64,000 bases of DNA from Ktedonobacterales bacterium (GCA_036557885.1 DATBGS010000084.1:2314-66313); one strand, 5' to 3'. Shown: positions 2,135-31,848, numbered from the stretch's first letter. Numbers and translations: made by a program. Notes: a model not told the origin generated them from the letters alone.

Positions 2135-2968
2135 TCACTTCGAGGCCATTGCCAGCCCCAAGAGGCGACGCGCTTCAGCGGGTGTGGCGACCTCGCGCCC
2201 CAACTCTTCGGCTATACGAACGACACGCGCTACCAGTTCGGCATTGCTTGCTGCCAGCCGCCCCTTGGAGTACCAGACGTTATCCTCAAAGCCGACGCGC
2301 ACATGCCCGCCCAGCACGATTGCCAGCGCCGCCATCGGCAACTGCTGCCGCCCAATGGCTGTCACCGTCCAGGGCATGCCAGCGGGGATTGATTCAGCGA
2401 GAAAGAGCAGATTTTTGGGCGAGGCAGGAAACGCTCCAGGCACGCCCAGCACAAAATTAAAGCGAATGGGGTCTTGCAGCACGCCTTCCTTCTGGAGCAG
2501 CAGCGCAGTGGCAATCATCCCCGGCTCAAAGACCTCCACTTCGGGCGAGATGCCGCGCTCGGCCATACGCCGGGCCAACTGGCGGATAAAGGCGAGCGGG
2601 TTGCTAAAAACTTCGTCGCCAAAGTTGCAGGTGCCGCAGGTCAGCGAGGCCATCTCTGGCGGGTCGGGTGTTTCCAGCGGGCCGCTGCGCTCCTCAAGCG
2701 TCATCCAGGCCGCGCCGCCAGTGGAGCACATCGTAATGATGTCCGGGCAGCGCCGCCGCACCGCTGCCAGAATCGCGGCATAGGTTTCCATCGCCTGCGT
2801 CGCGTGTCCCTCTGCATCGCGGGCGTGCAAATGGGCCACCGCCGCGCCCGCCTCACGGCAGGCAGCCACCGCCTCGGCAATCTCCCCTGGCTGAAGTGGC
2901 AGCGCCGGATTATCAGCGCGTGTGGTTTCGGCCCCGGTGGGCGCGACGGTGATCACCAGTTTATCCAT
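2135..2968 (-). CDS. kce: 3-keto-5-aminohexanoate cleavage enzyme (BKACE / DUF849 family)
   Basis: ORF 2135-3112 trimmed to ATG 2968 (MDKLVITVAPTGAE). BKACE-type blocks ITVAPTG, HLHARD and GGHVRVGFEDN are present. There is an 8-nt overlap with the kamE stop. Confidence 0.85.
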   Translation of the reverse strand: MDKLVITVAPTGAETTRADNPALPLQPGEIAEAVAACREAGAAVAHLHARDAEGHATQAMETYAAILAAVRRRCPDIITMCSTGGAAWMTLEERSGPLETPDPPEMASLTCGTCNFGDEVFSNPLAFIRQLARRMAERGISPEVEVFEPGMIATALLLQKEGVLQDPIRFNFVLGVPGAFPASPKNLLFLAESIPAGMPWTVTAIGRQQLPMAALAIVLGGHVRVGFEDNVWYSKGRLAASNAELVARVVRIAEELGREVATPAEARRLLGLAMASK

Positions 2969-3743
2969 GTGCGCGCTCCTCCTGGCTTTTCTGGTCCTGT
3001 TGACGGACGGCTGCTTCATGGCGGGCCACCAGTTCTTGCGCCAGATAGCTTGCCACCAGTGTTGCCGTCGTGCCAGGGCCAAAGCCCGCGTCGTAGCCAA
3101 GCTCTTTGGCAAAGGGATGTGACAGGCGTGGCCCGCCCACCACCATCAGATACCTGCCGCGCACGCCCTCAGCCTCGGCCAGTTCCACCAGTTTGGTCAG
3201 TTGGTGGATATGCACGTTTTTCTGTGTCACCACCTGCGAAACCAGAATGGCATCGGCCTGCTCAGCCTCAGCCCGCCGCAGCAGCACCTCGCAGGAAACC
3301 TGCGCGCCCAGGTTGACCGCCCGAAACTCCGGGTAGCGCTCCAGGCCGTAATGCCCGGCAAAGCCTTTGGCGTTAAAGATCGCGTCAATGCCAACCGTAT
3401 GCGCGTCGCTCTCGATGGCCGCGCCAATCACCACGACCTTGCGCCCCAGCCTGGCGCGAATCAGATCGTTAATCTCTTCAAAGCTGAGTTCTGCATGCTC
3501 GATGGCTTCCACGCTGAAGCTGTCTGGGTCCAGGGTGTGGCTGCACGCGCCATAGACCACAAAGAACGAGAAGCCGCTTTCCAGCGCCTCAGCATGCGCA
3601 ATGGTGGGCGAGGGAATGCCCATCATCACGGCATAGCGCCGCGCTGCCTCGCGTGCGCGGGCATCCAGAGAAAGCGGGAGCGTAAACGAAAGCTGCACCA
3701 CACCATCGTTGGCGGTGTCCCCATAGGGGCGAATCTGGGGCAT
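2961..3743 (-). CDS. kamE: lysine 5,6-aminomutase beta subunit (B12-binding)
   Basis: The N-terminus IRPYGDTANDGVVQLSFTLPL and the B12-binding DxHxxG block (SDAHTVGIDAI), plus VSQVVTQKNVH and GYDAGFGPG, closely follow clostridial KamE as recalled. Confidence 0.9.
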   Translation of the reverse strand: MPQIRPYGDTANDGVVQLSFTLPLSLDARAREAARRYAVMMGIPSPTIAHAEALESGFSFFVVYGACSHTLDPDSFSVEAIEHAELSFEEINDLIRARLGRKVVVIGAAIESDAHTVGIDAIFNAKGFAGHYGLERYPEFRAVNLGAQVSCEVLLRRAEAEQADAILVSQVVTQKNVHIHQLTKLVELAEAEGVRGRYLMVVGGPRLSHPFAKELGYDAGFGPGTTATLVASYLAQELVARHEAAVRQQDQKSQEERAHG

Positions 3744-3749
3744 AGGTTG

Positions 3750-5339
3750 TTATCCTCTTTCAGCCGCCCCCTGCGGCGCGGGTGAGTGCTCTTGAATCAC
3801 TTCCAACAGCATCTCATAAAACGGATTGCAATAGCTGGCGTCCCTGGCAACCACGCCTTCCAGCCCGCGCCCGTCATCAGGTGAACGGCGAATGTCGGCA
3901 AACAATCCTTGGGACAAGCCGTTGAAGAGGCCGCCCAGCGCCTCAAACTGGTGCAGCAGATCAACGGCTTTGCGCAGCAGTTCATTGGCGCGTTGGGCAA
4001 CCAGACTGTCTTCGCGCCAGGTGAACTGCTCGCCCAGGTCGCGGGCCGCGTCAAACGTGTAGCGTGCCGCGCGGATGCTCACAAAGCGGTCTTGCAGGAG
4101 CGGCGTGTGTATCGCCTCTGTTGGCATACCCAACAGTTGAATCCCCTGGCCCGTCAAAGCGCCGACGAGATTAAAGAAGCCATCCAGCAGATGCCCGCGA
4201 AAGATGTCGCCGGTCATGTGCTTGGTGGGCGGCATATATTTGATGGGGCTGCGCGGGAAGAGGTCGCGGATAAGCTGCGCCGAAGCAATTTCATAGAGCA
4301 GGTGGTTGGGCGTATCAGGGTTAATCTCGAAGGCATGGCCCAGCCCAATCTGCTCCTCTGGCAAGCCCGCCTCCAGCGCCAGCCGCTCGTTGAGAAACTG
4401 CGAGGCAATCACCGTATGGCCTGATTGCAGGGCATCCGCCGTTGTCAGGTAGTTATCTTCGCCCGTGTTGATGATGATGCCAGCGGCGGCATTGATGCGC
4501 CGCGAAAAATGCTGGTCAATCAGCGTGCGCTGCATATTAATATCGCGGAAGATAATGCCATAGAGCGAATCATTAAGCATCATATCCAGCCGCTCCAGCG
4601 CCCCCATTGCCGCTATTTCCGGCATGCACAGGCCAGAGCAGTAGTTGGTCAGCCGCACATAGCGCCCAAGCTCCGCGCTCACCTCATCCAACGCCGCGCG
4701 CATCAGCCGGAAGTTTTCCTGCGTGGCGTAGGTGCCGCCAAAGCCCTCAGTTGTTGCGCCGTAGGGCACATAATCGAGCAGGCTTTGCGCCGTCGAGCGA
4801 ATCACGGCGACGATGTCCGCGCCCTGGCGTGCTGCTGCCTTCGCCTGCACGATGTCCTCATAGATATTGCCGGTGGCAACAATCACGTAAATCCAGGGCT
4901 GCGGTGGATTGCCTCTGGTTGCCAGAAGCTCGTCGCGCTCGCGGCGGCTGGCGCGGATACGCTGCACCCCGGCATAGGCCAGCCGCTCTGCCAATGCGCG
5001 CACCTGCGCAGGCAGCGGCGCCGGGACAGGCGCAAGCTGCACCTCGCCTGCGGCAATGGCCTGGGCCAGCGGCTGCACCTCCAGCCCGGTTTGGAGCATG
5101 GCAGCCGCAAAGGGCGCCAGAACCCCACCAGGCAGCAGCGCACGCGCGCGCTCCACAACCACATTGGGCAGCGGCACATCTACGCTGTCTACACCATCTA
5201 CTCCGATCAGACGTAAGACGGTGCGCTCAATGGCAACAGTGGTATGCCCGGCGATCAAGTCCAGCACCGGGCGAGCAATGCGGCTGGCAGCGGCACGCGC
5301 CTCGTCCACCAGCGCGGTATTGAGGGTGAGATGGGGCAT
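3750..5339 (-). CDS. kamD: lysine 5,6-aminomutase alpha subunit
   Basis: ORF 3750-5759 trimmed to ATG 5339 (MPHLTLNTALVDEAR). Long blocks (WIYVIVATGNIYEDI, GADIVAVIRSTAQSLLDYVPYGATTEGFGGTYATQENFRLMR, NYCSGLCMPEIAAMGA) match KamD as recalled. The stop is 6 nt upstream of the kamE start. Confidence 0.9.
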   Translation of the reverse strand: MPHLTLNTALVDEARAAASRIARPVLDLIAGHTTVAIERTVLRLIGVDGVDSVDVPLPNVVVERARALLPGGVLAPFAAAMLQTGLEVQPLAQAIAAGEVQLAPVPAPLPAQVRALAERLAYAGVQRIRASRRERDELLATRGNPPQPWIYVIVATGNIYEDIVQAKAAARQGADIVAVIRSTAQSLLDYVPYGATTEGFGGTYATQENFRLMRAALDEVSAELGRYVRLTNYCSGLCMPEIAAMGALERLDMMLNDSLYGIIFRDINMQRTLIDQHFSRRINAAAGIIINTGEDNYLTTADALQSGHTVIASQFLNERLALEAGLPEEQIGLGHAFEINPDTPNHLLYEIASAQLIRDLFPRSPIKYMPPTKHMTGDIFRGHLLDGFFNLVGALTGQGIQLLGMPTEAIHTPLLQDRFVSIRAARYTFDAARDLGEQFTWREDSLVAQRANELLRKAVDLLHQFEALGGLFNGLSQGLFADIRRSPDDGRGLEGVVARDASYCNPFYEMLLEVIQEHSPAPQGAAERG

Positions 5340-5453
5340 AGCGCCTCCAGAAAGACTAGAAAGAGTGCATGGACAGCAAGCAAAGCCGATGATGGTTATG
5401 AGTGCTGAGCCTATGGTACCATAGAGAAGAAGTCGTTTCATCCAGGAGTCAGT

Positions 5454-6062
5454 ATGTTTGAATGGCTGCCACAGCCCATGCAAGACGAGATTGAGCAGCT
5501 TGCCACGCGCTACGGAAAGCCGCTGCGCCATGTCACCGATCAGGCCGCTCGGTACGTGTACGAAGCCAACTATCTGCAAGGGCCGCTGCGCCGCCAGGCG
5601 GAAGTGTGTATGGTGGTGCAGCGCGGCGCCAATCGCCTGCTGACCTTTCGCAAGCCGTTTTATCCGCAGGGAGCCTGGCGTCTGCTCACCGGAGGGGTCA
5701 ACCCAGGCGAGGCCATCCTTGACGCCCTTCAGCGCGAGGCAGAGGAAGAAACCGGCCACAGATTGCTAGTGCTGCGCTTTCTCTGCGCGATTGAATACCA
5801 GGGGGCAGAGCAAGCCCGCTTCGCCACCTTTGCTTTTCTGCTGGATGGCGCTGACCGGGCGCTTAGCCCCATTGACCAGGACGAGCAAGTTGAGGCATTC
5901 CGCGAAATTGAGGTTGCCGACCTGCCCCAGATAGCCGACTTCTTAGCGCAGATCGCGCCGGTCTATAGCTCCGAACTGGAAACACTGTGGAGCGAATGGG
6001 GCATCTTCCGCGCAGTGGTGCATCGGCAAGTCTGGGAACGCTTGCAGGCTCAGGTACAATAA
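5454..6062 (+). CDS. NUDIX hydrolase
   Basis: Nudix box GGVNPGEAILDALQREAEEETG. GGAG lies 7 nt upstream of ATG 5454. Confidence 0.8.
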   Translation: MFEWLPQPMQDEIEQLATRYGKPLRHVTDQAARYVYEANYLQGPLRRQAEVCMVVQRGANRLLTFRKPFYPQGAWRLLTGGVNPGEAILDALQREAEEETGHRLLVLRFLCAIEYQGAEQARFATFAFLLDGADRALSPIDQDEQVEAFREIEVADLPQIADFLAQIAPVYSSELETLWSEWGIFRAVVHRQVWERLQAQVQ

Positions 6063-6118
6063 GACTGATTGCACCAGCACGCAATATTTGTCGAGCATCG
6101 GCTAGAAAAGGAAGCGAG

Positions 6119-6943
6119 ATGTTGCAGGTCAAAACTCCCGCGTTTGTGATGATTGATGGCCGCAAAATGGCCTACGATGAGGTCAGCCCCGCCAATCCGA
6201 AAGGCACCATGCTGCTGCTCACCGGCCTGGGGTCCAAACGGCTTGGCTGGTATAGGCAGCTCAACGTCTTTGGGGAGCAGTATCGCACGATTGCCCTGGA
6301 CCACCGCGATACTGGCGACAGCGACCCTTCGTCCGGTCCCTACACCACTGCCGATCAAGCCGATGATGCGGCAAAAGTGTTGAAAGCGCTGGGCATTGCG
6401 CGCGCCCATGTGATTGGCATCTCGATGGGTGGCTTTATTGCGCTGGAATTGACGCTGCGCCACCCGGAGATGGTAGACAAACTGGTGCTCACGTCTACCT
6501 CAGCCGGTGGCCCAACGCATGTGCAGCCAGGCCAGGAGATGACGGCCATGCTGATGCGTGACCGCAGCGGCATTGAGGTGGGCGAAATGGCAAAGCAAAA
6601 TTACCGCATGATCATGGCACCCGGCTACTGCGAAAGCCATCCCGATGAGTGGGAAAGGATTGCCGAAAACGCCCGCTATCGCCCACAAACAATGGAAATG
6701 TATCTGCGCCAGTTACAGGCGTGTATGGGAAACAATGCCTCTGATCGGCTGGCCCAGATCAAAGCCCGCACGCTCGTGGTGCATGGCGATGTAGACCCGC
6801 TGGTACCACCCGATAATGGGCGCTACCTGGCCGCGCACATTCCCGGCGCCAGGCTCATTATGTATCATAACGTCGGCCATATTCCCATCATCGAGCGGGC
6901 CGACGACTATAACCGCGAAGTGCTGGCGTTTCTTGAAAGTTAG
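6119..6943 (+). CDS. alpha/beta-fold hydrolase
   Basis: ORF 5987-6943 trimmed to ATG 6119 (RBS GGAAGCGAG). Nucleophile elbow GISMGG; a late H is present in NVGHIP. Confidence 0.8.
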   Translation: MLQVKTPAFVMIDGRKMAYDEVSPANPKGTMLLLTGLGSKRLGWYRQLNVFGEQYRTIALDHRDTGDSDPSSGPYTTADQADDAAKVLKALGIARAHVIGISMGGFIALELTLRHPEMVDKLVLTSTSAGGPTHVQPGQEMTAMLMRDRSGIEVGEMAKQNYRMIMAPGYCESHPDEWERIAENARYRPQTMEMYLRQLQACMGNNASDRLAQIKARTLVVHGDVDPLVPPDNGRYLAAHIPGARLIMYHNVGHIPIIERADDYNREVLAFLES

Positions 6944-6980
6944 TAACACGCTGGCGCAGAGATAACAGGCGAGGATTTTG

Positions 6981-7826
6981 ATGACGACACCTTCATCACA
7001 CAACAAAAATGGACCAATTGGCGTCTTTGATTCCGGCACTGGCGGGCTGACCGTATTGATTGAATTGATGCGCGAACTGCCCAACGAGCGCTTTGTCTTC
7101 TTTGGCGACACGGCGCATTGTCCCTTTGGCAAGCGCAGCGCCGAAGAGATCAAGGACTTTGCCGCTGCTGCCGCCGAGTTTTTTTTGAGCCAGGGCGCCA
7201 AGCTGATCGTCCTCGCCTGCAACTATGCCTCGGTTGTCGCCAGAGAAACGCTGCGCCAGCGTTATCCGGTTCCGTTTGTGGCCGTCGTGCCCGCCGTCAA
7301 GCCCGCCGCGCAAGCCACCAAAAGCGGGCATATTGGGGTGATGGCAACCGATGCCGTCTCGCGCAATCCGCTCTTTCTGGAGTTGGTGGAGGAACTGCGC
7401 AATGGTGTGCAGACCACCACGATTGGCTGCACGCGCCTGGTGGAGCACTGCGAGGCCGGGGAACTGGATGGCCCCAAGGTTGAGGCCACCATCCATGACT
7501 ATATTGACCTACTGTTGGCGGCGGGCGTGGATACGCTGGTGCTGGGCTGCACCCATTTTCCGCTGCTGCGCGCGCCCATTCAGCGCGTGGCTGGCCCAAA
7601 CGTCACGGTGATTGACAGCGGCGCGGCAGTGGCGCGGCAGGCGCGGCGGGTGCTGGAGCAAGATAGCATGCTGCGCGACGTCAGGGCGCCGCTTAACGGC
7701 CATAAGCGGCTAGAAGTGAATTGCAGCGGCGACCCGCGTGATTTTGCTCAGGTTGCCTCAATGATTTTGGGACGGCGCGTGGCGGTGCGGCAGGCGCTGG
7801 CGCCCGTCTCAGAGGCAAAAGTGTAG
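6981..7826 (+). CDS. murI: glutamate racemase
   Basis: IGVFDSGTGGLTVL, the ACNYAS block and the GCTHFP block. ATG 6981 follows TTG 6978 in frame. Confidence 0.9.
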   Translation: MTTPSSHNKNGPIGVFDSGTGGLTVLIELMRELPNERFVFFGDTAHCPFGKRSAEEIKDFAAAAAEFFLSQGAKLIVLACNYASVVARETLRQRYPVPFVAVVPAVKPAAQATKSGHIGVMATDAVSRNPLFLELVEELRNGVQTTTIGCTRLVEHCEAGELDGPKVEATIHDYIDLLLAAGVDTLVLGCTHFPLLRAPIQRVAGPNVTVIDSGAAVARQARRVLEQDSMLRDVRAPLNGHKRLEVNCSGDPRDFAQVASMILGRRVAVRQALAPVSEAKV

Positions 7827-8350: not shown

Positions 8351-8641
8351 ATGGATACAAAAAAGGTGGCGACTGTCCGCAAAACCTTTGAGCTTCATGA
8401 GCCAGCAGCCAGGGCGCTTGACACCCTGGTAGAAGCGGGTCTGGCCCGAAGCGCAACGGCTCTTATTGAGGAGCTTGTGTTGCGTGAAGCAAAGCGTCTG
8501 GAATATGAGCGCCGCCAGGCTGAACTAGAACACATGTATGCAGAGATGTACGCTGATCCTACCTATAAGCAAGAGCAGGAAGAAATCGAAGCCATCTTTG
8601 CCACAGCACTACTAGATGGGCTGGAGGGGGAGCCGCAATGA
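8351..8641 (+). CDS. ribbon-helix-helix type antitoxin
   Basis: The N-terminal VRKTFELHEPAARALDTLVEAGLARSATALIEELVL fits a beta-strand plus two helices. There is a 4-nt ATGA overlap with the downstream MazF-like gene. Confidence 0.7.
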   Translation: MDTKKVATVRKTFELHEPAARALDTLVEAGLARSATALIEELVLREAKRLEYERRQAELEHMYAEMYADPTYKQEQEEIEAIFATALLDGLEGEPQ

Positions 8642-9042
8642 GTGACCCCCCTCTGCGGCGGTGGTCTGTGGTACGGGTAGACCTTGGACAAACGGGCGTT
8701 ACTGATCTACGTGGCCACGAGCAAGCGGGAATACGGCCAGCTATCATCGTTTCTAACGAAGCGTTCAACCGCCATAGTGGTTTATTTACTGTTGTGCCGC
8801 TAACTACCGAAAAAGAACATCGCCCCGCTCGCCCAAATGAAGTGCTTTTGCCAACGGGAACAGGCGGAGTCCCTTATACCTCTATTGCGCTCCCTCATCA
8901 AATACGCACCCTCCCTGCCCTGCGTGTGAAGCCGCCACTCTATGGGCGTATTCTGGATAAATCGCTCCGGCTCGCCCTTGCCCAACAGGTGCTTGTGCAT
9001 CTGGGCCTGGAACAACTCGAAAACCTGAACTTTGAGCCGTAG
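8638..9042 (+). CDS. PemK/MazF-family endoribonuclease toxin
   Basis: WSVVRVDLGQTG...HEQAGIRPAIIVSNEAFN...FTVVPLT is typical of MazF/PemK. It is translationally coupled to the antitoxin. Confidence 0.85.
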   Translation: MSDPPLRRWSVVRVDLGQTGVTDLRGHEQAGIRPAIIVSNEAFNRHSGLFTVVPLTTEKEHRPARPNEVLLPTGTGGVPYTSIALPHQIRTLPALRVKPPLYGRILDKSLRLALAQQVLVHLGLEQLENLNFEP

Positions 9043-9135: not shown

Positions 9136-9882
9136 ATGCCCACCGCCAGGTCTGCCCCCAAAAAAAGTCCGGCAACCACGCGCCCCAACGGAAACGGCAA
9201 GGACAAAAACAAAAAGAAAACGCTGGCGCAGCCCGCGCCCGACGCCGTTAGCATAGACGCGGCACCAGACCAGAGCTGGCTGCTCATTGCGCTGGTGCTG
9301 TTGGGGGGCATGTCGTCGCTGGCGGTGGAGATGGTCGCGGCGCGGCTGATGGCGCCCTATTTTGGCGATTCGCAGTTTGTGTGGGCCACGCTGATTGGGC
9401 TGACGCTGATCTACCTGACGATTGGCTACGCGCTGGGCGGGCGGCTGGCTGACCGCGCGCCGCGTTCACTGGCGCTCTATCAACTGACGGCTGTGGCCGC
9501 CGCAACCATCGGCTTGATCCCACCGCTGGCCTCCGTCGTTCTGGGTTGGGCTGCCGAAGCCTTTGGTCGTCCAGACAGCGACATCACCGCCGGACCACTC
9601 ATCGCGGCGCTCGTGCTGTTCTCGCTGCCCGTCACGCTGCTGGGCTGCGTCTCGCCGTATGCCATCCGGCTGCGCGTCAAAGCGGTGGGCACAGCGGGCA
9701 GCACCGCTGGCCGCCTCTACGCGCTCTCCACCGTTGGCAGCATCCTGGGCACGTTTGTGCCCGTCTTCTGGCTGATGCCTCACTACGGCGTGCGTGCCAC
9801 CATCTTTCTTTTCGCCGGGATGCTGATGGCAATTTCAGCAGCGGGGATGCTTGTCCAGCGGCGATCTGCCCAACAGCACTGA
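9136..9882 (+). CDS. polytopic membrane protein resembling the N-terminal membrane module of fused membrane/spermidine-synthase-like proteins
   Basis: A basic N-terminus is followed by several TM helices. LAVEMVAARLMAPYFGDSQFVWATLIGLTLIYLTIGYALGGRLADR resembles the membrane part of SpeE-like fusion proteins. No methyltransferase-fold domain follows. Confidence 0.55.
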   Translation: MPTARSAPKKSPATTRPNGNGKDKNKKKTLAQPAPDAVSIDAAPDQSWLLIALVLLGGMSSLAVEMVAARLMAPYFGDSQFVWATLIGLTLIYLTIGYALGGRLADRAPRSLALYQLTAVAAATIGLIPPLASVVLGWAAEAFGRPDSDITAGPLIAALVLFSLPVTLLGCVSPYAIRLRVKAVGTAGSTAGRLYALSTVGSILGTFVPVFWLMPHYGVRATIFLFAGMLMAISAAGMLVQRRSAQQH

Positions 9883-11527: not shown

Positions 11528-11709
11528 GCGTGCCTCTTTGTACCATTCCCCCAACCGCAAAACGCGCTTGGATCGAAATTGAATTTGACATCTGTACCCT
11601 ACTGACGAACCGCCAGGAAGATCTGTGTCATTACGTTCTGCCTCAGTATATCGCCTCAGTTTTGGTCCCGTCAACGACACCAGCCCAATTTCCGACGACC
11701 ACGAGCCAG

Positions 11710-12582
11710 CTAGCTGCCTGGCAGGGTTGCCAGCGCGTGCTCAACGGCCAGCGGCACCTCAATGCGATACTCCACGCTGCGCATGGCACGCAGCACCGGC
11801 TCCAGAAAAGAACGCAGTTGTGGGTGATGCTGGGCATGCAGCGCGTAGGCCGAAGTTTCCATCAGCCAGGGAGTGAGCGGGGCAGTGCTCAGCAGGTGCA
11901 AAATGGGGCGCACTACCGGGGTTCCCATCGTGGAGAGCGTTCGCGCGGCCATCCATGCAACGGAATAGTCATGATCGGCCAACGCCTGAACCATTATTGG
12001 AAGCCCGCGCCGCTCATGGAAGCTGCCCAGCAGCCGCAGCGCGTGCCAGCGTGCTCCTGCTTCGGGCGAACGCGCCGCTTCCAGCAGCGTCGGAACGGCA
12101 GATTCGCCCAGCATCCCCAGCAAATGCGCCGCTTCCGCGTTTAAGGCCGGGCGCGCATCGCGCAGCCCGCCGAGTAAGACCTGCTGCGACAACCCGGCTG
12201 GCGCGGCAGACAAAAAGAGCGCGCGCACCCTGTTGCGCAAGGGCGGCTGGCGCAGCGCGAGCGGCACTTTGAACGGTTTCCCCGCCCAGGTGCCCAGGGC
12301 CAGCCACTCCAGCAAGCGCTCAAATAGGCGAGCATCAGAGCAGATCCGAATGGCCTCCAGCGCCTCGCGGTTGTCTTCGCCAATCCAGTGCAGCAGACGC
12401 CAGGCAGCCCCACGCTTGCCCTGGGCAGCGGCAACCACCAATTCTGCGGCTGGCGTCGTCCCAACGGGCGGCGGGAGCGCCTCTGGCAGGGCAGTCTGGT
12501 TTGCCAGAAACGCGGCATCAAGCGCGGCATCGGGGAGTGGCTCACCAGGAGGCGATGGCTCCGGCTCCTGTGGTGGCAACAT
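11710..12582 (-). CDS. HEAT / PBS-lyase-like repeat protein
   Basis: ORF trimmed to ATG 12582 (RBS CAGGAGG). Repeats of the type LRDARPALNAEAAHLLGMLG, SPEAGARWHALRLLGS and DHDYSVAWMAARTLSTMG are present. Confidence 0.6.
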   Translation of the reverse strand: MLPPQEPEPSPPGEPLPDAALDAAFLANQTALPEALPPPVGTTPAAELVVAAAQGKRGAAWRLLHWIGEDNREALEAIRICSDARLFERLLEWLALGTWAGKPFKVPLALRQPPLRNRVRALFLSAAPAGLSQQVLLGGLRDARPALNAEAAHLLGMLGESAVPTLLEAARSPEAGARWHALRLLGSFHERRGLPIMVQALADHDYSVAWMAARTLSTMGTPVVRPILHLLSTAPLTPWLMETSAYALHAQHHPQLRSFLEPVLRAMRSVEYRIEVPLAVEHALATLPGS

Positions 12583-13227
12583 GGTTAACCTCCTGATAAT
12601 GCAGCAAAAACAAATTACATCAGCCCCACATCTCCCAAAATGGATAGTGGGCAGCGCAAGCAGAATGTGTGCCTGGGGTTGAAGGCGCGGCAGTGCAAAG
12701 CCTGGGGCACTGGTTGTAAAAAACCAGTGCCCCAGGTATCTACCAGAGCAGGAGGTCAAGAAAGAGAAGGAGCAGGTTCCGCCAATGGGGAACGCCCACT
12801 CCAATGCTCTCCTATTATAGAACACCCTTTCTAAAAACGCAAGTAATCTGGCGAAAGTTCTGGCTGCACCAGTGTGCCAGATATTGCGAAACCCCTGTCA
12901 CTATGATATATTCTTTACTGATACGTAGACCTGGAAGCAAGGAGCTTTGAGGACGAACCAGTACCGTAGTTGTGTTGTTTATCAATTGATTGGACATTCC
13001 GCACACCCCACACCGGGCCAGTTCCGGTAAAAGCATGCGTGATGCGCATGGTTTCTGGGGTGTTTTTGTGGTGTTTGAAAGGACACCTGTATGTGTACCG
13101 ATGGCAGTGCTATAGCCACTCGCAAAACTTGCAACGACTTGATGGGAAGCTATCTTTCCTGGTATATCGCCTGTTGCTGTACAGGCAATAGCTAGCGGCG
13201 TTGTCGCCGTGTAAGGAGCGTGACACG

Positions 13228-14988
13228 TTGTTCGGCCCTCACCTGATTATTGATGGGAGCAAGTGCAACACCCAGAAGCTGGCAGATCGCATTCTGATAG
13301 AGCAACTCCTCAACGATTACCCCCGCGCCATTGGGATGACTAAAATTGGCGGGCCATACATGTTCGAGTACCAGGCCCCCGACCCGGCGTATTCTGGCGT
13401 TTCTGGCCTGGTCGTCATTGCCGAAAGCCATATCGCCATTCACACCTTCCCCGAACTCGACTACTTCACGATGGACATCTTCTCGTGCCGCAACTTTGAC
13501 CACGAGACGGCGATTGCCTATATCAAAGATGCCCTGGAAGTCAAAGAAATGGACCGCATGCTGGTGCAGCGCGGCCTGAGCTTTCATGGCCCGCATCACG
13601 GCGCCTTTGGCTCCGATGCGGAAACCGGCAAACCGCTGCACCGCGCCGCCGGGCGACGCGCCGAAGACCTGGCGCTGGCCGGGCACGAAGCCGAAATACA
13701 GGAGCACGTGGCTCGCCGCGATGAGCGCGTCCAGCAGTATAACGACAATGGCCGCATGATCTGGCCGCAATATGGCGCGACGCCTGACATTGGCACCTAC
13801 GGCGCCCATGCACCAGACCCGCAGGCTGGCAAAACACCGGGGAACGTCAACAGCACCCAGGCACCTACTTATGCGGCCCAGAAGCCGCTCTATCCCTCCA
13901 GGGGGCATCTGGTTATTCGCGTGGTACATACCCGCGCCGGGGCACGCCTTCTCGAATCGGTGGTGGAGGAAACCGCGCCCGCAGACACGGCCCAGAAGCA
14001 CACAGCAACACAGCCCGCGCAGGCCGCCATCACACTTGAGGTGACACCCACCGAGCCGGTGCAGGTGAATCCAACGGCTTCTATGAGCGGCTTGTTGGAT
14101 AAAATGGGCGGCATGGGTGCCGAGGGACGCAAGGTATCCAGCGCCCTTGACCTCTGGGAGCGCATGGTGCGCGACCCCGATTGCACCATCTTGCTTGGCC
14201 TGGCCGGGCCGCTGATTCCCGCCGGGGCGCGCGAATTGATCGTCTACCTGATCGAGCATCGGCTGATTGATGGCATCGTTGCCAATGGCACCAACCTGTT
14301 CCACGATCTGCACGAGGCGCGCGGCGCGCGGCATTACCAGGGCACCGATCAGGTGCATGACGCCGACCTGCTGGCCGCAGGCTACGAGCGCCAGGCCGAC
14401 CTGTTTGCTTCTCACGATGAACTGCGCCAGACCGAACAGATGGTCAGCGACTTTAGCGCCACGCTCGGCCAGGAGGCACAGCTTTCGACCAGCGCCTTTT
14501 TCCGGCGGCTGGGCGCGGCACTGCGCCATATGGCTCCGCGTAAGGGCATCATCCAGGCGGCAGCCGAGGCGGGCCTGCCCATCTACGCGCCAGACATCAG
14601 TGCCAGCCCCTTTGGGACGGCGCTGGCAACGGCGCGTGCAAAGGCGCAAGCCAGAGTGCAGTTTGACACCATCGGGGACGCGCTGGAATTGGCGGGGGTG
14701 CTGACGAGTGCGCAGCATTCTGGGGTCATTCTGGTGGGGAACGGCAACGCCTCCCCTGCTGACCTGCTGACACAGGCCGCGCGGCTGAGCCAACTGCCCA
14801 TCATCCATCACTACAGCGTGGCTCTGGGCAGTGGAGAATCATTGCCCGGACTGGAAAGCGTGGCTTCAGTCTCCGACCCAACCCTCACCTTGCCGCTGAT
14901 CGTTCACGCCCTGGCCCAGCGCTGCCCAGGCACGCGCCCTGCGCCCCGGCGCAAAGCGATTCCCGCCAATATGGTGATGGCCGAATAG
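13228..14988 (+). CDS. fusion protein: pyruvoyl S-adenosylmethionine-decarboxylase-like (SpeH type) N-domain + deoxyhypusine-synthase-like C-domain
   Basis: Single ORF 13201-14988. The likely start is TTG 13228, 8 nt after AAGGAG. The N-domain has VSGLVVIAESHIAIHTFPE and DIFSC. The C-domain has CTILLGLAGPLIPAGARELIVYLIEHRLIDGIVANGTN and AGLPIYAPDISASPFG. A ~160-aa low-complexity linker joins them. Confidence 0.8.
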   Translation: MFGPHLIIDGSKCNTQKLADRILIEQLLNDYPRAIGMTKIGGPYMFEYQAPDPAYSGVSGLVVIAESHIAIHTFPELDYFTMDIFSCRNFDHETAIAYIKDALEVKEMDRMLVQRGLSFHGPHHGAFGSDAETGKPLHRAAGRRAEDLALAGHEAEIQEHVARRDERVQQYNDNGRMIWPQYGATPDIGTYGAHAPDPQAGKTPGNVNSTQAPTYAAQKPLYPSRGHLVIRVVHTRAGARLLESVVEETAPADTAQKHTATQPAQAAITLEVTPTEPVQVNPTASMSGLLDKMGGMGAEGRKVSSALDLWERMVRDPDCTILLGLAGPLIPAGARELIVYLIEHRLIDGIVANGTNLFHDLHEARGARHYQGTDQVHDADLLAAGYERQADLFASHDELRQTEQMVSDFSATLGQEAQLSTSAFFRRLGAALRHMAPRKGIIQAAAEAGLPIYAPDISASPFGTALATARAKAQARVQFDTIGDALELAGVLTSAQHSGVILVGNGNASPADLLTQAARLSQLPIIHHYSVALGSGESLPGLESVASVSDPTLTLPLIVHALAQRCPGTRPAPRRKAIPANMVMAE

Positions 14989-15072: not shown

Positions 15073-15663
15073 TCATGGTTTTGGCAGGTCAGGCCACTTC
15101 TCCACAAGCCGCTGAGGTCTGTAGTCCAGCAGTTCATCAAGCAGCGCGGCGGGCGCCTCCGCGCGCCGCAGCAGGCTGAGGTGTTGAGGCGGGATGAAGC
15201 CTTCCTGAGCCACATGGCGCAAAAACGCCAGCAGTGGCGCAAAAAACTGCTCGACATCCAGCAAGCCAATCGGTTTGGCATGCAGGCCAATCTGCACCCA
15301 TGTCACCATCTCAAACAATTCATCCAGGGTGCCATAGCCGCCGGGCAGCGCAATAAACGCATCTGAAAGCTGCGCCATCAGCGCTTTGCGCTCGTGCATA
15401 CTCTCCACTTCGCGGAGTTCGGTCAGCCCGGTATGGGCCACTTCGCGCCGAAACAACCCGCGCGGCAGCACCCCAATCACCTCGCCGCCAGCCGCCAGCG
15501 CTGCGTCAGCCAGCACCCCCATCAACCCGACGCTGGACCCTCCATAGACCAGGCTGAGCTTGCGCCGCGCAAGTTCAGCGCCCAACGCGCGGGCCATCTC
15601 TCCATAGGCCGTGCGCGTCCCCGCGCTTGAGCCACAAAACACACAGATACGTTGCATCTCCAT
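15073..15663 (-). CDS. LOG-family (TIGR00730-type) nucleotide phosphoribohydrolase
   Basis: GGSSVGLMG and PGGYGTLDELFE motifs. ORF trimmed to ATG 15663; ATG 15657 is also possible. Confidence 0.85.
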   Translation of the reverse strand: MEMQRICVFCGSSAGTRTAYGEMARALGAELARRKLSLVYGGSSVGLMGVLADAALAAGGEVIGVLPRGLFRREVAHTGLTELREVESMHERKALMAQLSDAFIALPGGYGTLDELFEMVTWVQIGLHAKPIGLLDVEQFFAPLLAFLRHVAQEGFIPPQHLSLLRRAEAPAALLDELLDYRPQRLVEKWPDLPKP

Positions 15664-15756
15664 GCTCCCAGAATGTTGCTTGAGATTGTGCCATCCAAGC
15701 ATAGCCCACTGGACATGGCGATGCAACTACGTGCCGTTTACGCTAATTACAGAGAA

Positions 15757-15799: not shown

Positions 15800-15820
15800 T
15801 CGCCTCATGGTTCTGATATG

Positions 15821-15850
15821 TTGATAACATGGCTAGTTTTGTGCTACAAT
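15821..15850 (+). promoter_or_regulatory. near-consensus promoter with overlapping palindrome, probably giving a leaderless RHH transcript
   Basis: TTGATA (15821-15826), 18-nt spacer, TGc-TACAAT (15842-15850). The palindrome ATGTTGATAACAT (15818-15830) covers the -35. ATG 15857 starts 7 nt after the -10. Confidence 0.55.
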
Positions 15851-15856
15851 AGAAAC

Positions 15857-16051
15857 ATGAAAAAGGCGGCCCACTTTCTCTTAACTGAACAGGCTCGGCG
15901 GTTATTAGAGCGGCTTGCACAAACGGATGGCATTAGCAAGACAGCCATGTTGGAAATTGCCATCCGAGAAGCGGCACGTAAACGAGGCATTGATGCTCAT
16001 TCTGGACTACAAGCTGAGAGTCAACCAGACGCAACAAACCGCGATAGATGA
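15857..16051 (+). CDS. small ribbon-helix-helix (CopG/Arc-like) protein encoded inside the TnpB element
   Basis: MKKAAHFLLTEQARRLLERLAQTDGISKTAMLEIAIREAARKRG has an RHH pattern (beta-strand plus two helices). The tail overlaps the tnpB start in another frame. Confidence 0.5.
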   Translation: MKKAAHFLLTEQARRLLERLAQTDGISKTAMLEIAIREAARKRGIDAHSGLQAESQPDATNRDR

Positions 16052-17269
16052 AGCCATCCGCACCACACAGTTCATCAGGAACAAGTGTCTACGCAAGTGG
16101 ATGGATGGACGGGGCGTGGGTGATAACGACCTGCAAGTCTATTGCGCTCAGCTTGCCAAAGACTACTCTTTTGCTGCCTGCCTCAATTCCCAAGCTCGCC
16201 AAGCCAGTGCAGACCGCGCCTGGCTCTCCATTGCTCGCTTCTACAAAAACTGCCGGGAAAAGAAACCAGGGAAGAAAGGCTATCCCCAGTTTCCCTGCGA
16301 GCGCAGGGCAGGCAGCATGATAATCGTTCTGTCGAATACAAAACAACCGGCTGGCACTTAGAGCCAGATGGCACGCATCTCACCTTCACCGATGGGATAG
16401 GCATGGGCACGCTCCGCATCATGGGCGCCAACCCCACGCGCAAGAAGGCGCGCCCCATTGCCACCTTCCCCATTGGGCAGATCAAACGGGTACGACTGGT
16501 GAAACGGGCCGATGGGTACTACGTCCAGTTTGCCGTGAAAGCAGAGCGGAGCCTGCCCCATGCGCCAACCGGCAAACGGGTGGGTATTGATGTGGGACTG
16601 AAAGCCTTCTACACCGACTCGGAGGGAAACACGGTTGCCAATCCTCGCCATCTGCGCAAGGCGGAACGCAAGCTGAAGCGCTTGCATCGGCGCGTCTCAC
16701 GCAAACAGAAACGCTCGAAGAATCGTAAAAAGGCAATCAAACGCTTAGCAAAAGCGTATCTGAAAGTCCAAAGGCGGCGTAAAGACTTCGCCTGCAAGCA
16801 GGCGAGTACGTTGGTGAAATCTAGCGATTTTATTGCCTATGAAGACTTAAAGATTGCCCATCTGGTCAAGAATCACAAACTCGCCAAAAGCATCAGTGAT
16901 GCCAGTTGGGGGCTGTTCCTTTCCTGGCTGCGCTATTATGGTTGCATTGCCAATGTGCCCGTCATCGCGGTGTCGCCCAAGTTCACGAGCGCCGATTGCA
17001 GCGGGTGCGGGTATCGGGTGCACAAGAGCCTGAGTCAGCGTACCCATATCTGCCCCCAGTGTGGCTTGATCTTAGACCGGGATTGGAATGCCGCGCTCAA
17101 TATCTTGGCCGCCGCGCTCGCGTGGCTAGCCGCACACCCTGCGAGCGCAGGGCACAGCCGTACCGCTGGGCAAGCGGAAACGGGCCACTCGCAAGAGGGG
17201 CAAAACGCTTCGGGACAGACCGCCTCTACGAACGTGTTCGCCAGGGCACGTCGCAAACGGGCTGGTTGA
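15993..17269 (+). pseudogene. tnpB: IS605 OrfB-type RNA-guided endonuclease TnpB, split by one frameshift
   Basis: The N-part from ATG 15993 (MLILDYKLRVNQTQQTAIDEAIRTTQFIRNKCL...GYPQF) runs in one frame to stop 16361. The remainder (RSVEYKTTGWHL...GIDVGLK...IAYEDLKI...CSGCG...CPQCG...DRDWNAALNI) runs in the -1 frame to 17269. The switch lies near 16285-16320. Confidence 0.8.
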
Positions 17270-27866: not shown

Positions 27867-27891
27867 GCACGCTTGATCTGACGAGGCAGAG

Positions 27892-28503
27892 ATGCAACCA
27901 GAACTCCAGGACGCAATTACCCACTATGTCGAAGAGATGCTTGGCTCCGAAGGGCTGATGTATGTCAGCAAGGTCGTTGCCAACTGCAAAATGCTGGCGG
28001 TGGAGCACCCCACCGTTGACGTGGACGCGCTGGTGATGGCGGCTTATCTGCATGATATTTCCACCGGCGTCTACGGCAAGCAGGACCATCACCGCCGCTC
28101 CGCAGAGATGGCTATCTCTTTCTTAAGCGACTGGGATGTCCACGTGGACACGCTGGCCCGCGTGCGCGCCGCCATTCTGGTACACAGCTTTGTGGCGCCG
28201 CCAGAAGAACGCGACCGCGTTCCCCTGGAAGGGCAGATTCTCTACGACGCGGATAAAATTGGGCGGCTGGGCGGGCTGGCAATTGTCACCGCGCTAATCG
28301 AATTGGGCGCCAAATATCCAGACCGCACCTTCTCGGATGAAACGCTCTCCACCGTGCTGCATCATGTCGAAGAACGCTATGTGGAATTGTTTCAATCGCT
28401 CTATACCACCAACGCCAAAGAACTCTGCCGCGAAAAGTTTGGGCGCACCCTGGCCTTTCTGGACGGCGTGCTGGAGCAACTGACCGGCAGTTCTGAGGTA
28501 TGA
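27892..28503 (+). CDS. HD-domain metal-dependent phosphohydrolase
   Basis: AAYLHDIS (HD), later HSF and YDADKIGRLG. About 200 aa. Confidence 0.7.
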   Translation: MQPELQDAITHYVEEMLGSEGLMYVSKVVANCKMLAVEHPTVDVDALVMAAYLHDISTGVYGKQDHHRRSAEMAISFLSDWDVHVDTLARVRAAILVHSFVAPPEERDRVPLEGQILYDADKIGRLGGLAIVTALIELGAKYPDRTFSDETLSTVLHHVEERYVELFQSLYTTNAKELCREKFGRTLAFLDGVLEQLTGSSEV

Positions 28504-28542
28504 AGCATGTTTGACTACTTGATGAAAGGTAGTAGTTTATAG

Positions 28543-30323: not shown

Positions 30324-30356
30324 CGACATGAAACTTTTTCTGGCTGCATGTGCTCT

Positions 30357-30375
30357 GTCTAACAGGCTGTTAGAC
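30357..30375. promoter_or_regulatory. 19-nt perfect palindrome upstream of ahcY (candidate operator)
   Basis: GTCTAACAG-G-CTGTTAGAC read directly. Nine plus nine nt around a single central base cannot fold as an RNA hairpin, so it is more likely a protein site. Confidence 0.35.
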
Positions 30376-30447
30376 AAGACTTTTTCGACGCTGTTTCGTT
30401 AGAAGTAGCGGAAAGCAGCTATTTTGGATATGGAACTGACGAAATAA

Positions 30448-31749
<1,302 letters not shown>

Positions 31750-31848
31750 ACGTATATTGTCCCAAAGGCCAACCCCTCGACGCGAGGGGTCGGCGCCAGA
31801 ATGACTTTGGTATGTGAGAACTCCGCGAGGGAGGGAGAGGAAAAACCA

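Follow-up and report, generated by a model that had tools for sequence, protein, structure and literature searches.

What a protein that joins a pyruvoyl decarboxylase to a deoxyhypusine synthase (DHS)-like domain does in Ktedonobacterales is the question raised by this locus. The gene lies in a stretch of 64,000 nucleotides from a Ktedonobacterales bacterium, the whole of which was analyzed and is called the window here, and a sequence-only reading had proposed that it encodes a noncanonical module for forming or transferring polyamines. The right frame for the gene was absent from that reading and is the speDA-speY-speB homospermidine pathway (PMC10407285; PMC13625781). We think it probable that the gene is a decayed bifunctional homospermidine fusion with an active decarboxylase (likely an arginine decarboxylase [ADC]), a dead SpeY domain, and dedicated control by its leader.

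RESULTS

One reading frame encodes two domains and a linker

13228 to 14988, plus strand: coding sequence of the fusion protein (P0001, 586 amino acids, 100% identical)
13240 to 13575, plus strand: class 1b pyruvoyl decarboxylase (AdoMet_dc/SpeD-family) domain
13576 to 14034, plus strand: linker, predicted to be disordered
14035 to 14967, plus strand: DHS/SpeY-fold domain, catalytic apparatus lost (predicted pseudoenzyme)

A single TTG-initiated open reading frame runs without interruption from 13228 to the stop at 14988, as the sequence-only reading had stated, and a listing of open reading frames gives an equally unbroken but longer span of 13201 to 14988. The TTG at 13228 held up as the start, as relatives all open with (M/L)FGPHLIIDG and GTAAGGAGCGTGA..TTG is conserved. 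The ribosome-binding AAGGAG reported upstream is present at 13213 to 13218, but its spacing to the TTG is 9 nucleotides rather than 8.

Profile searches recovered both expected families. PF02675 matched residues 14 to 125 over its full length (E 6e-27, 94.5 bits against a threshold of 25, profile positions 1 to 107 of 107), which places the N-terminal half in the SpeD superfamily, and PF01916 matched residues 298 to 515 (E 2e-48), yet only over profile positions 2 to 218 of 288. The linker that had been described between the halves is likewise real, with a length of about 150 residues and an AlphaFold2 (AF2) pLDDT below 57 over residues 112 to 265. Though predicted to be disordered, it carries the invariant motifs RGLSFxGPHHG and WPQYGxTPDxGxYG in an alignment of fusions and has a dN/dS of 0.19 to 0.42; NPTASxSGLLDK lies directly 3' of it, where the DHS-like domain begins. 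The AF2 model contains no confident contact between the two halves.

The two Pfam domains occur together in at least 120 listed protein clusters (44 to 100% identity) and in 51 GTDB species-level metagenome-assembled genomes, every one of which is Ktedonobacterales-type. We conclude that the fusion is real and old and that it has been conserved among the soil Ktedonobacterales.

The decarboxylase half is intact and resembles arginine decarboxylases

13426 to 13428, plus strand: Ser67, the predicted pyruvoyl precursor (T. maritima AdoMet decarboxylase [AdoMetDC] S63)
13441 to 13443, plus strand: His72 (T. maritima H68)
13486 to 13488, plus strand: Cys87 (T. maritima C83)

The pyruvoyl signature that had been recognized by eye aligned as expected, with ES-H, HTFPE, and FSC falling on T. 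maritima S63, H68, and C83. All 15 fusions in the alignment have the catalytic Ser, His, and Cys, and the dN/dS of the domain is 0.00 to 0.06. Judged by these residues, the decarboxylase half is intact.

Which substrate the domain decarboxylates was addressed by comparison with characterized relatives. V. chlorellavorus encodes two paralogs, of which SpeD1 is an AdoMetDC and SpeD2 an ADC by experiment, and every speY-clustered SpeD homolog tested in the same study was an ADC (PMC10407285). The decarboxylase half scored 98 to 126 bits (43 to 51% identity) against all 120 Vampirovibrio members of the speH_1 (SpeD2/SpeDA) type, versus 55 to 63 bits against the canonical co-resident Vampirovibrio paralog (SpeD1 type) and T. 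maritima SpeD. It is closer, then, to the type that gene order and motifs identify with the validated SpeDA (SpeD2; tested protein WP_181385235) than to the co-resident AdoMetDC. The fusion and the SpeD2-type family also have in common FGPHL, an Asp for the strand Glu, IGMTKI, a 6-residue insertion, and DYF..FSC, and the fusion-type family reads IDG(S/T)xC where bona fide SpeDs have xExYxC. An arginine decarboxylase paralog, mentioned earlier as an alternative, is the better reading, and these comparisons make L-arginine the most likely substrate. An ornithine decarboxylase of the SpeDC type was rejected: the diagnostic Gln, Thr (ETS), Phe (GHF), and Tyr are all absent, and the central region reads VVIAESHIAIHTFPE...FTMDIFSC.

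Four observations point away from arginine. The domain scored 84.6 bits against TIGR03330, the AdoMetDC equivalog model, above the cutoff of 75.65. The Pro that follows the catalytic His is kept in all fusions (HTFPE or HTFPA), as in AdoMetDCs. A membrane spermidine synthase-like (Spermine_synth) gene adjoins the fusion convergently in two loci (L026 and L059), and a homolog of the N terminus of its product lies at 9136 to 9882 of the window. Finally, an MtnA-like/AdoHcyase/MetK cluster at 26.7 to 33.1 kb is consistent with methylthioadenosine (MTA) salvage. The N-terminal half could on these grounds be a bona fide AdoMetDC whose product, decarboxylated AdoMet, is used by an aminopropyltransferase from another locus (the membrane protein is one possibility), with the SpeY half a relic or a regulator. 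We consider this unlikely, given the twofold higher score to the ADC-type Vampirovibrio family with its common insertion and motifs, the IDG(S/T)xC sequence, the agmatine-pathway enzymes found both as the ancestral fusion partner and in a cluster around one fusion (see below), and the absence of a canonical speE, which encodes the spermidine synthase that is the obligate partner of an AdoMetDC, from all of the roughly 60 loci around the fusion gene. Moreover, the Pro (HTWPE) is invariant in true AdoMetDCs and is not conserved, though not absent, in SpeDA (PMC10407285), and a solo SpeD2-type homolog of putative activity (L146) likewise keeps an HTFPE-type Pro. We conclude that the retained Pro is necessary but not sufficient for a bona fide AdoMetDC.

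The SpeY half keeps its predicted fold and has lost its catalytic residues

14845 to 14850, plus strand: site at which 16 residues, the loop with the catalytic Lys (human DHS G314 to K329), have been deleted

Human K329 is the catalytic Lys of DHS and forms the enzyme-imine intermediate. That the window protein lacks this Lys had been noticed, and alignment to DHS sharpened the point: the whole equivalent of human residues 314 to 329 (..EAxSWGK), which reads GGLSGCTFxEAQSWGK in intact relatives, is deleted. The loop is missing from 19 of 19 fusions of the window clade and 50 of 52 distant fusions, and a Lys at the human 329 position was found in none of 71 degenerate fusions versus 35 of 35 intact domains. 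Other, clade-invariant pocket positions have also changed, D238, GGG 282-284, K287, and W313 reading A, GNG, A, and P in the window. Of 87 positions that do not vary among intact SpeY-type domains, the window domain retains 47 and a distant group of fusions only 19. Replacements in the nucleotide and substrate pocket vary by sublineage, with GGG becoming GNG, GSG, or GAG, K287 becoming A or D, and H137 becoming A in the distant group, which suggests erosion and not the emergence of a new conserved site. Equivalents of D342, D138, and Q292 are still present, and the window clade keeps NLFHDLHE.

Among the curated models considered (PF01916 and NCBIfam NF002006, NF001980, and NF002699), NF002006 was the best curated match to this half, at 206 bits against an equivalog cutoff of 434. 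The domain is nonetheless predicted to fold confidently (AF2 pLDDT above 90), Foldseek matched it to human and archaeal DHS (E 1e-16, TM 0.7 to 0.8), and its dN/dS of 0.11 to 0.24 indicates purifying selection. With the Lys loop gone and further pocket residues lost, SpeY-type coupling should no longer be possible. We conclude that the DHS-like half is, by its residues, catalytically dead, and that it is still functional in some sense. The earlier statement that the protein does not carry out classical hypusination stands; the suggestion that this half forms or transfers polyamines does not, as neither the Lys loop nor the GGG loop is left and the residues equivalent to K287 and D238 are lost as well.

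The fusion probably descends from a bifunctional enzyme

Two hot-spring relatives, P0032 and P0033, have an intact SpeY-type half. Both retain ..GGGTPKNF.. and ..GGLSGCTFNEAQSWGK, their alignment with solved DHS structures runs from one end to the other, and NF002006 gives them 401 bits, in the company of stand-alone relatives at 319 to 398 bits. Their nearest stand-alone relatives are found in PvlArgDC-DS-Arginase and DS-PvlArgDC operons, an arrangement that corresponds to the ADC/SpeY/SpeB pathway of PMC13625781. Thus, the intact ancestral type survives in P0032 and P0033, and the window protein has decayed from a fusion that was bifunctional.

Partner genes are seldom linked. Profile searches found no speB, speY, or speE within the 64-kb window, and only 4 of the 51 GTDB loci have polyamine genes close to the fusion. 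In one of them (L046), an agmatinase gene, the degenerate fusion, and an intact SpeY gene follow one another, with the last 277 nucleotides downstream of the fusion and its product scoring 537 bits against the NF001980 cutoff of 450. This arrangement raises the possibility that the dead domain is a prozyme, which would heteromerize with a separate active SpeY, in the way of the dead DHS paralog of trypanosomatids, and tether the decarboxylase to the next enzyme for channeling or activation. DHS forms its active sites where subunits meet, a heterotetramer with a dead paralog has been solved (6dft; PMC3663545), and purifying selection acts on the dead domain. Such a partnership would be compatible with the decayed fusion that we favor and not exclusive of it. 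We nevertheless regard it as improbable: the arrangement occurs in just 1 of 51 GTDB loci, the L046 SpeY is of a different subfamily (NF001980) and shares about 28% identity with the dead SpeY halves, none of 80 metagenome loci with relatives of that SpeY has a SpeD-like neighbor, and no stand-alone Ktedonobacterales SpeY was among the top matches listed.

The HEAT-repeat neighbor is incidental

11710 to 12582, minus strand: HEAT-repeat gene (ATG at 12582, AGGAGG upstream), judged to lie outside the system

Deoxyhypusine hydroxylase is a HEAT-repeat di-iron enzyme with four His-Glu metal-binding motifs. The divergent neighbor is indeed a HEAT-repeat gene (PF13646, E 3e-17), and its 290-residue product best matched the generic HEAT_2 profile and, weakly, CpcF. 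His-Glu pairs had been reported as lacking from it, but the translation contains one, in SFHERRG. The closest relative of the window (L063, 91% identical) has 60 nucleotides in place of the segment from 11681 to 12696, so that the HEAT gene is precisely gone. Linkage to the fusion was found only in L064, L004, L012, and L014 and does not extend beyond the window's own subclade. With a single His-Glu and a gene that is deleted in L063, the neighbor was rejected as a deoxyhypusine hydroxylase, and the earlier idea that it is an analog of that enzyme or a partner of the fusion falls with it. We conclude that the HEAT gene is incidental and dispensable.

Modification of EF-P, raised earlier as one possibility, found no evidence, and neither EF-P nor its modification genes are linked at the loci examined. 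A new, Lys-independent catalysis by the DHS-like half (such as oxidation of an amine with NAD, or attachment of an aminobutyl or other group to a protein like EF-P, perhaps with the HEAT protein) would accord with a folded and selected domain that retains D342, D138, Q292, and NLFHDLHE, but it is very improbable given the lineage-specific erosion of the pocket, the 19 of 87 positions left in the distant group, the dispensable HEAT gene, and the unlinked EF-P genes.

A dedicated leader precedes the fusion gene

12884 to 12912, plus strand: promoter-like site, TTGCGA-N17-TATATT with a TG-extended -10
12991 to 13077, plus strand: structured leader RNA, three-way junction with a U-run at its end
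13091 to 13195, plus strand: upstream open reading frame (uORF) of 34 codons, MCTDGSAIATRKTCNDLMGSYLSWYIACCCTGNS-TAG, with GAAAGGA upstream
13196 to 13209, plus strand: hairpin CGGCG-TTGT-CGCCG, abutting the uORF stop and 3 nucleotides ahead of AAGGAG

The promoter-like hexamers are identical in L063, L064, L004, L012, L013, and L014 and would start a leader of about 300 nucleotides. The leader RNA consists of an outer helix around CCGC/ACACCCC...GGGGTGT and two hairpins, and it carries the invariant CCGCCUCC/GGGUAGGGAG. Its consensus fold in 7 window-clade sequences has 28 pairs, 8 of them with compensatory changes. In distant relatives the homologous element has a P1 of 7 bp, every pair of which covaries; 95.7% of its cells are paired, versus 32 to 48% when slid, and none of 500 shuffles reached that value. 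All matches of a covariance model (R1) lay upstream of the fusion gene, save for two weak hits close to the threshold, and a search of Rfam 15 at E values up to 1 with the window and 10 loci found no family for the leader RNA. The element is a covariation-backed structure in a 5' leader, as a riboswitch-like RNA would be, and by that search it is a member of no Rfam 15 family.

The three-way junction and the uORF are found together in 57 of 61 loci. Synonymous changes (Ser as AGC, AGT, or TCC; Leu as CTC, CTT, CTG, or TTG) leave the C terminus of the uORF peptide, YLSWYI(A/G)CF(Q/H)(S/T)G(N/D/E)S, conserved, and the stop is TAG throughout and is always followed by CG. In the uORF of the window itself, Cys-Cys stands in place of the near-invariant Phe-(His/Gln) of relatives. 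As a short upstream frame conserved at the peptide level, the uORF is a candidate regulatory leader peptide of the arrest type. The hairpin stem is kept in relatives by paired changes (CGGC/GCCG, CGAC/GTCG, CGGT/ACCG, and CGGG/CCCG). The TTG at 13201 falls within this conserved hairpin and was rejected as a start codon for the fusion. Only about 30 nucleotides separate the uORF stop from the main start, a spacing suggestive of control at translation rather than through Rho. The leader, which the sequence-only reading had passed over, has not been described previously and is a candidate new regulatory element.

DISCUSSION

How a decayed homospermidine fusion might work can be outlined. The protein would descend from a fusion of two consecutive pathway enzymes. 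Its N-terminal domain, with residues intact, would cleave itself at Ser67 to generate the pyruvoyl cofactor and would decarboxylate an amino acid, most likely L-arginine to agmatine in the manner of SpeDA. The C-terminal domain would originally have been a SpeY that converted two agmatines to N1,N9-bis(guanidino)homospermidine and would now be kept as a folded, selected, noncatalytic module. The role of that module we can purely infer: it may hold the decarboxylase in a DHS-like oligomer and/or act in regulation or partner binding. Agmatine may pass to a separately encoded agmatinase or, where present, a stand-alone SpeY. Upstream, the leader would govern expression: a three-way-junction RNA is followed by a short frame and then by a hairpin, a Shine-Dalgarno sequence, and a weak GTG or TTG start, and the conserved uORF peptide with its invariant UAG suggests stalling at termination that may depend on a metabolite.

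The gene is a variant of the known speDA-speY homospermidine genes, and the fusion form and, as a candidate regulatory element, the leader are new. In speDA-speY-speB (or aguA/aguB) clusters, a SpeD-derived pyruvoyl ADC is encoded directly upstream of a DHS homolog, with the same families in the identical order (PMC10407285; PMC13625781). The intact P0032 and P0033 would perform the first two steps, and L046 adds an agmatinase. Unlike in those clusters, there is here one polypeptide with a long linker, the SpeY half is dead in the window lineage, and the third gene is normally unlinked; neither paper mentions a SpeD-SpeY fusion of this kind. A known polyamine-pathway fusion of a pyruvoyl decarboxylase with a second SpeD-fold domain also pairs an active decarboxylase with a persisting partner that lacks key active-site residues, but there the partner is an ornithine decarboxylase, whereas here it has an unrelated Rossmann-type DHS/SpeY fold and is reached by a disordered linker. 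The dead DHS paralog of trypanosomatids (DHSp) and the AdoMetDC prozyme (PMC3663545; PDB 6dft) offer the parallel of a DHS-fold pseudoenzyme under selection in polyamine metabolism. DHSp, however, is a subunit of its own and activates an impaired DHS whose substrate is eIF5A, whereas the dead domain here is covalently attached to a decarboxylase and has no known active partner in most genomes.

For the leader peptide there are two metabolite-sensing counterparts in polyamine synthesis. One is the uORF of eukaryotic AdoMetDC. The other is SpeFL, 34 amino acids encoded upstream of speF, in which ornithine blocks RF1 at a UAG (bioRxiv 10.1101/604074). Like SpeFL, the window uORF is a short frame (34 codons) directly upstream of a polyamine decarboxylase gene. 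In both, the C-terminal peptide is conserved, the stop is UAG, and a hairpin lies at the 3' end. Unlike SpeFL, to which it has no sequence similarity, the candidate window uORF follows a covarying three-way-junction RNA and ends close to the main start.

What the locus may mean for polyamine control in Chloroflexota can be put forward only tentatively. Perhaps the three-way-junction RNA and the arrest peptide YLSWYIACF(Q/H)(S/T)G(N/D/E)S-UAG form a new, ligand-responsive control of polyamine synthesis, and the dead SpeY domain is its counterpart at the protein level, an allosteric sensor of polyamine or agmatine or a prozyme-like adaptor on a pyruvoyl ADC. If so, regulation by a pseudoenzyme, sensing by a nascent peptide, and a riboswitch-like RNA would be united at one bacterial locus.

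A single gene for a two-domain protein

The fusion gene encodes 586 amino acids: an AdoMet_dc (SpeD-family pyruvoyl decarboxylase) half, a disordered linker, and a half resembling deoxyhypusine synthase (DHS) and its bacterial homolog SpeY. The frame is open without interruption from 13201 to 14988. We take TTG 13228 to be the functional start because (M/L)FGPHLIIDG is the N-terminus in all relatives, the motif GTAAGGAGCGTGA..TTG is conserved, an earlier TTG (13201) sits within a conserved hairpin, and a 586-aa database protein is 100% identical to the window fusion. The single uninterrupted ORF proposed in the sequence-only reading is thus borne out. An assembly artifact or pseudogene is ruled out, since over 100 independent assemblies preserve the ORF, with dN/dS far under 1.

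The earlier assignment of the halves to the AdoMet_dc and DS families also held, as both were matched by Pfam. The AdoMet_dc domain is full length (E 6e-27), and the DS (deoxyhypusine synthase) domain scored E 2e-48, yet over profile positions 2-218 of 288 only. By NCBIfam, the N-terminal half lies above the AdoMetDC equivalog cutoff (TIGR03330; 84.6 vs 75.65 bits), and the C-terminal half falls far under every DHS/SpeY cutoff (best, 206 vs 434 bits).

The same fusion is present in relatives, where it had been suggested that it be sought. A protein database search with the fusion gave 230 matches; the 120 listed are 520-615 aa long with both domains and 44-100% identity, one fragment excepted. 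When one genome per species was scanned, 51 fusion loci emerged, all in MAGs, labeled Ktedonobacterales, Ktedonobacteria or Chloroflexi except for one "uncultured bacterium" and two Proteobacteria. Many listed proteins are named [quoted passage not shown] by NCBI and "deoxyhypusine synthase" by JGI. These names need correcting, as fusions so named probably have neither activity.

Erosion and apparent maintenance of the DHS-like half

The sequence-only reading had listed a missing catalytic Lys as an odd point, and that point is the key to the whole finding. In an alignment of 15 fusions, the segment TDAPYWGGLSGCTFNEAQSWGKVAAD is kept by P0033 and absent from all others; P0032, a relative of P0033, likewise keeps it, and both come from hot-spring metagenomes. 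P0033 aligned with solved DHS structures over its entire length, its Lys falling on human K329, and scored 401 bits against NF002006 (stand-alone bacterial homologs, 319-398). Key positions were tabulated for 106 sequences, with residues mapped via a HMMER alignment of P0033 to human DHS. D238, G282-G284, K287, W313, G314, E323, W327, K329, and D342 are invariant in all 35 intact sequences (33 stand-alone, 2 fusions). Human positions 314-329, however, are deleted in the window protein, its 18 close relatives, and 50 of 52 distant fusions, and Lys at 329 occurs in 0 of 71 (19 window-clade and 52 distant fusions), confirming its loss. Eroded fusions also have other residues at K287, D238, W313, and the central Gly of GGG, with different substitutes in different sublineages. 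Intact domains are nearly invariant at 87 positions. The window protein matches 47 of these, and the number conserved in 90% or more of the sequences is 35 for the window clade and 19 for the distant clade. Judged by these residues, the DHS-like half is a predicted pseudoenzyme.

Despite erosion, the DHS-like half still appears to be maintained. AlphaFold2 models its residues 270-580 with pLDDT above 90, and Foldseek matched human and Pyrococcus DHS (E 1e-16, TM 0.7-0.8). Among close relatives, dN/dS is 0.11-0.24 for the DHS-like half, 0.19-0.42 for the linker, and 0.00-0.06 for the decarboxylase. Three motifs in window 13576-14090 (residues 117-288), RGLSFxGPHHG, WPQYGxTPDxGxYG, and NPTASxSGLLDK, do not vary between the intact fusions and the most eroded ones, and the first two fall in a region predicted to be disordered (AlphaFold2). 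These motifs may serve in docking.

Substrate of the decarboxylase half

The decarboxylase half carries Ser67, His72, and Cys87, and the diagnostic residues of SpeDC (ornithine) are absent from it. Self-cleavage at Ser67 would leave a 66-residue beta chain (about 7 kDa) and an alpha chain of 520 residues (about 56 kDa) that includes the linker and the DHS-like half. We consider arginine the probable substrate. The best annotated match is MW495066.1 (L145), labeled "Microcystis phage MaAM05," in which two SpeD homologs lie upstream of speE and speB:

L145 (MW495066.1) 4486-7264: speD-speDA-speE-speB block, proteins 99% identical to Vampirovibrio chlorellavorus

speH_1, the protein matched, shares 99% identity with one from V. 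chlorellavorus, and the "phage" record could represent bacterial DNA or a transfer that happened very recently. The first homolog, speH_2, is canonical (AEFYDC, HTWPE, insertion-free). The second, speH_1, has in common with the window domain FGPHL, Asp for the strand Glu, IGMTKI, a 6-residue insertion, and DYF..FSC. Of the two V. chlorellavorus paralogs, SpeD1 rescues spermidine synthesis, whereas SpeD2 does not and is an arginine decarboxylase (ADC) with a kcat/Km of 780 M-1 s-1 (PMC10407285). The window domain reached 98-126 bits with each of the 120 SpeD2-type proteins retrieved, compared with 55-63 bits for T. maritima SpeD and the SpeD1 type. WP_181385235, the link of the tested ADC to the speH_1-type sequence, was absent among the cluster members listed.

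Activity on AdoMet is unlikely, with the bit scores closer to SpeD2, but several observations point to it. The TIGR03330 score exceeds its cutoff, the proline of HTFPE is retained, a membrane spermidine-synthase-like protein neighbors the fusion at two loci, and the window holds an MtnA-like/AdoHcyase/MetK cluster that bears on methylthioadenosine production and hence on dcAdoMet use:

L026 2123-3790 and L059 11674-13353, reverse strand: 555-aa Spermine_synth membrane protein, convergent, directly after the fusion gene
26760-33111, forward strand: AdoMet/methionine recycling cluster of IF-2B family (MtnA-like), HD protein, PfkB kinase, AdoHcy hydrolase, and AdoMet synthetase
9136-9882, forward strand: 248-aa ORF matching only the N-terminal membrane half of the 555-aa Spermine_synth-domain protein

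The last of these, in the window, is without the synthase domain.

The HEAT gene and other neighbors

11710-12582, reverse strand: HEAT-repeat gene, divergent from the fusion
12692-12850, reverse strand: conserved ~100-nt element, 3' of a sigma-70-like promoter (TTGACA-N17-TATAAT in L004)
15073-15726, reverse strand: LOG/TIGR00730 family protein, convergent neighbor of the fusion, conserved in L063 only
15800-17269 and 48560-49792, forward strand: two TnpB/IS605 OrfB-type genes (OrfB_IS605 and Cas12f1-like TNB domain)
2135-5759, reverse strand: lysine-fermentation-type cluster (beta-keto acid cleavage enzyme [BKACE], B12-binding/OAM_dimer subunit, D-lysine 5,6-aminomutase alpha subunit)
8638-9042, forward strand: MazF/PemK-type toxin gene, 4 kb upstream of the fusion locus

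The divergent HEAT-repeat gene does exist (HEAT_2 match, Pfam), but its proposed conserved linkage to, and partnership with, the fusion did not stand. The gene is linked only in the window subclade (L064, L004, and L014; 3 kb off in L012) and is adjacent to the fusion at no other locus. In L063, the closest relative (91% identical), 60 nt stand in place of window 11681-12696 with both flanks 93% identical. A partnership modeled on deoxyhypusine hydroxylase (DOHH) is ruled out by the single His-Glu, this clean indel, and the confined linkage.

A covarying hairpin that resembles a terminator (12692-12746), and that has a T-run in L063, closes the ~100-nt element. L063 retains this element despite lacking the HEAT gene, so the element could encode a small RNA or act as a leader, and the "N-terminal 81 aa" of a 371-aa HEAT ORF are read-through of it. 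Pfam gives the LOG protein the name "Possible lysine decarboxylase" (PF03641), which invites confusion with polyamine enzymes. The TnpB gene at 15800-17269 is a recent insertion, as the flanking LOG and MFS genes are adjacent in L063. The lysine-fermentation-type cluster is syntenic with L063, and no relation to the fusion was seen.

A family-specific leader

The fusion is expressed from a family-specific leader of RNA, upstream ORF (uORF), and hairpin, which the sequence-only reading had passed over:

12884-12912, forward strand: conserved promoter-like site; the three leader elements lie between it and the start codon
12991-13077, forward strand: structured leader RNA (other examples, L029 1397-1528 and L033 701-834); the window-clade fold is a three-way junction ending in a U-run
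13091-13195, forward strand: uORF of 34 codons, at 57 of 61 loci (25-37 codons across loci), ending ~30 nt before the fusion start

The distant-clade leader RNA is of like architecture, with invariant CCGCCTCC and GGGTAGGGAG. Its outer helix of 7 bp has compensatory changes at 7/7 pairs, and 95.7% of cells are paired vs 32-48% when the helix is slid, a result matched by 0/500 shuffles. R1, a covariance model built from distant relatives, matched 43 loci, each directly upstream of the fusion gene, and elsewhere in 1.07 Mb nothing but two weak near-threshold matches. R1 misses the window-clade and intact-clade leaders, so the homology of the two leader versions is by position and architecture only. 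No Rfam family matched the leader in window 11-16.5 kb and 10 loci, chance miRNA-type matches on hairpins aside. On these alignments, the three-way-junction RNA is a candidate element specific to the fusion gene. The window-clade U-run (about 13063-13069) resembles an intrinsic terminator, located before rather than after the uORF.

The uORF peptide has an MST.. start, a variable middle, and a YLSWYI(A/G)CF(Q/H)(S/T)G(N/D/E)S end. It is conserved as peptide across varying codons (AGC, AGT, and TCC for Ser, four for Leu), and its stop is TAG followed by CG in 53/53 distinct sequences. The window uORF ends ...ACCCTGNS, with Cys-Cys where relatives have a near-invariant Phe-(His/Gln). A hairpin whose stem is kept by paired changes lies directly 3' of the stop, and a Shine-Dalgarno sequence and then a GTG/TTG start follow at every locus but one.

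SpeFL, upstream of speF, is 34 codons long and ends at UAG, and its RF1 block depends on ornithine (bioRxiv 10.1101/604074). The uORF is alike in layout (34 codons, UAG stop) but has no sequence similarity to SpeFL and lies far closer to the main start, a distance that suggests translational control. Ribosomes might stall on the uORF peptide in response to a ligand. Two candidates emerge from the leader: a structured regulatory RNA and a nascent-peptide sensor of metabolites, each of them new. To our knowledge, characterized gene regulation is almost absent for the phylum Chloroflexota.

Origin of the fusion and the homospermidine pathway

L046 6036-13000: cluster of agmatinase (TIGR01230), LarC-like, LarB-like, uORF, degenerate fusion, and intact SpeY

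The intact SpeY of L046 lies 277 nt downstream of the fusion and belongs to another subfamily, NF001980 "homospermidine biosynthesis protein" (537 vs 450 bits). L046 is the only locus with a dead SpeY half beside a live SpeY. Among 80 metagenome loci found with its stand-alone SpeY, none had a SpeD-like neighbor and no further fusion-SpeY pairs occurred. In L028, agmatinase lies 9 kb from the fusion. No speB, speE, aguA/B, or speY was found elsewhere in the 64-kb window, and all-against-all ORF clustering of 63 loci gave no recurrent polyamine or functional neighbor, only lineage synteny (lspA, rluD-like, DksA-type zinc finger).

Among stand-alone proteins, the closest to the intact half (53-59% identity) belong to Acidobacteria, Deltaproteobacteria, and Zixibacteria, and their genes sit in PvlArgDC-DS-Arginase or DS-PvlArgDC operons, the arrangement described in PMC13625781. 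SpeY converts two agmatines to N1,N9-bis(guanidino)homospermidine, from which a ureohydrolase then yields homospermidine (Li et al. 2026, PMC13625781). A SpeD homolog encoded in a cluster with speY acts as a pyruvoyl arginine decarboxylase and is termed SpeDA (Li et al. 2023, PMC10407285). A fusion of SpeD to SpeY is mentioned in neither publication. The fusion belongs with this known speDA-speY homospermidine module, and the description that best fits the window protein is a SpeDA-type pyruvoyl decarboxylase joined to a fossilized but selected SpeY domain. This protein descends from an intact bifunctional fusion, a type that survives today. Parallels are the degraded SpeD-SpeDC fusions and the dead DHS paralogs of trypanosomatids.

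The recently worked-out agmatine/SpeY homospermidine route thereby gains a missing step, in which its first two enzymes occur naturally fused. Moreover, a graded series from intact to eroded exists inside one bacterial order, a clean natural experiment in how a fused domain turns pseudoenzyme and why it is retained.
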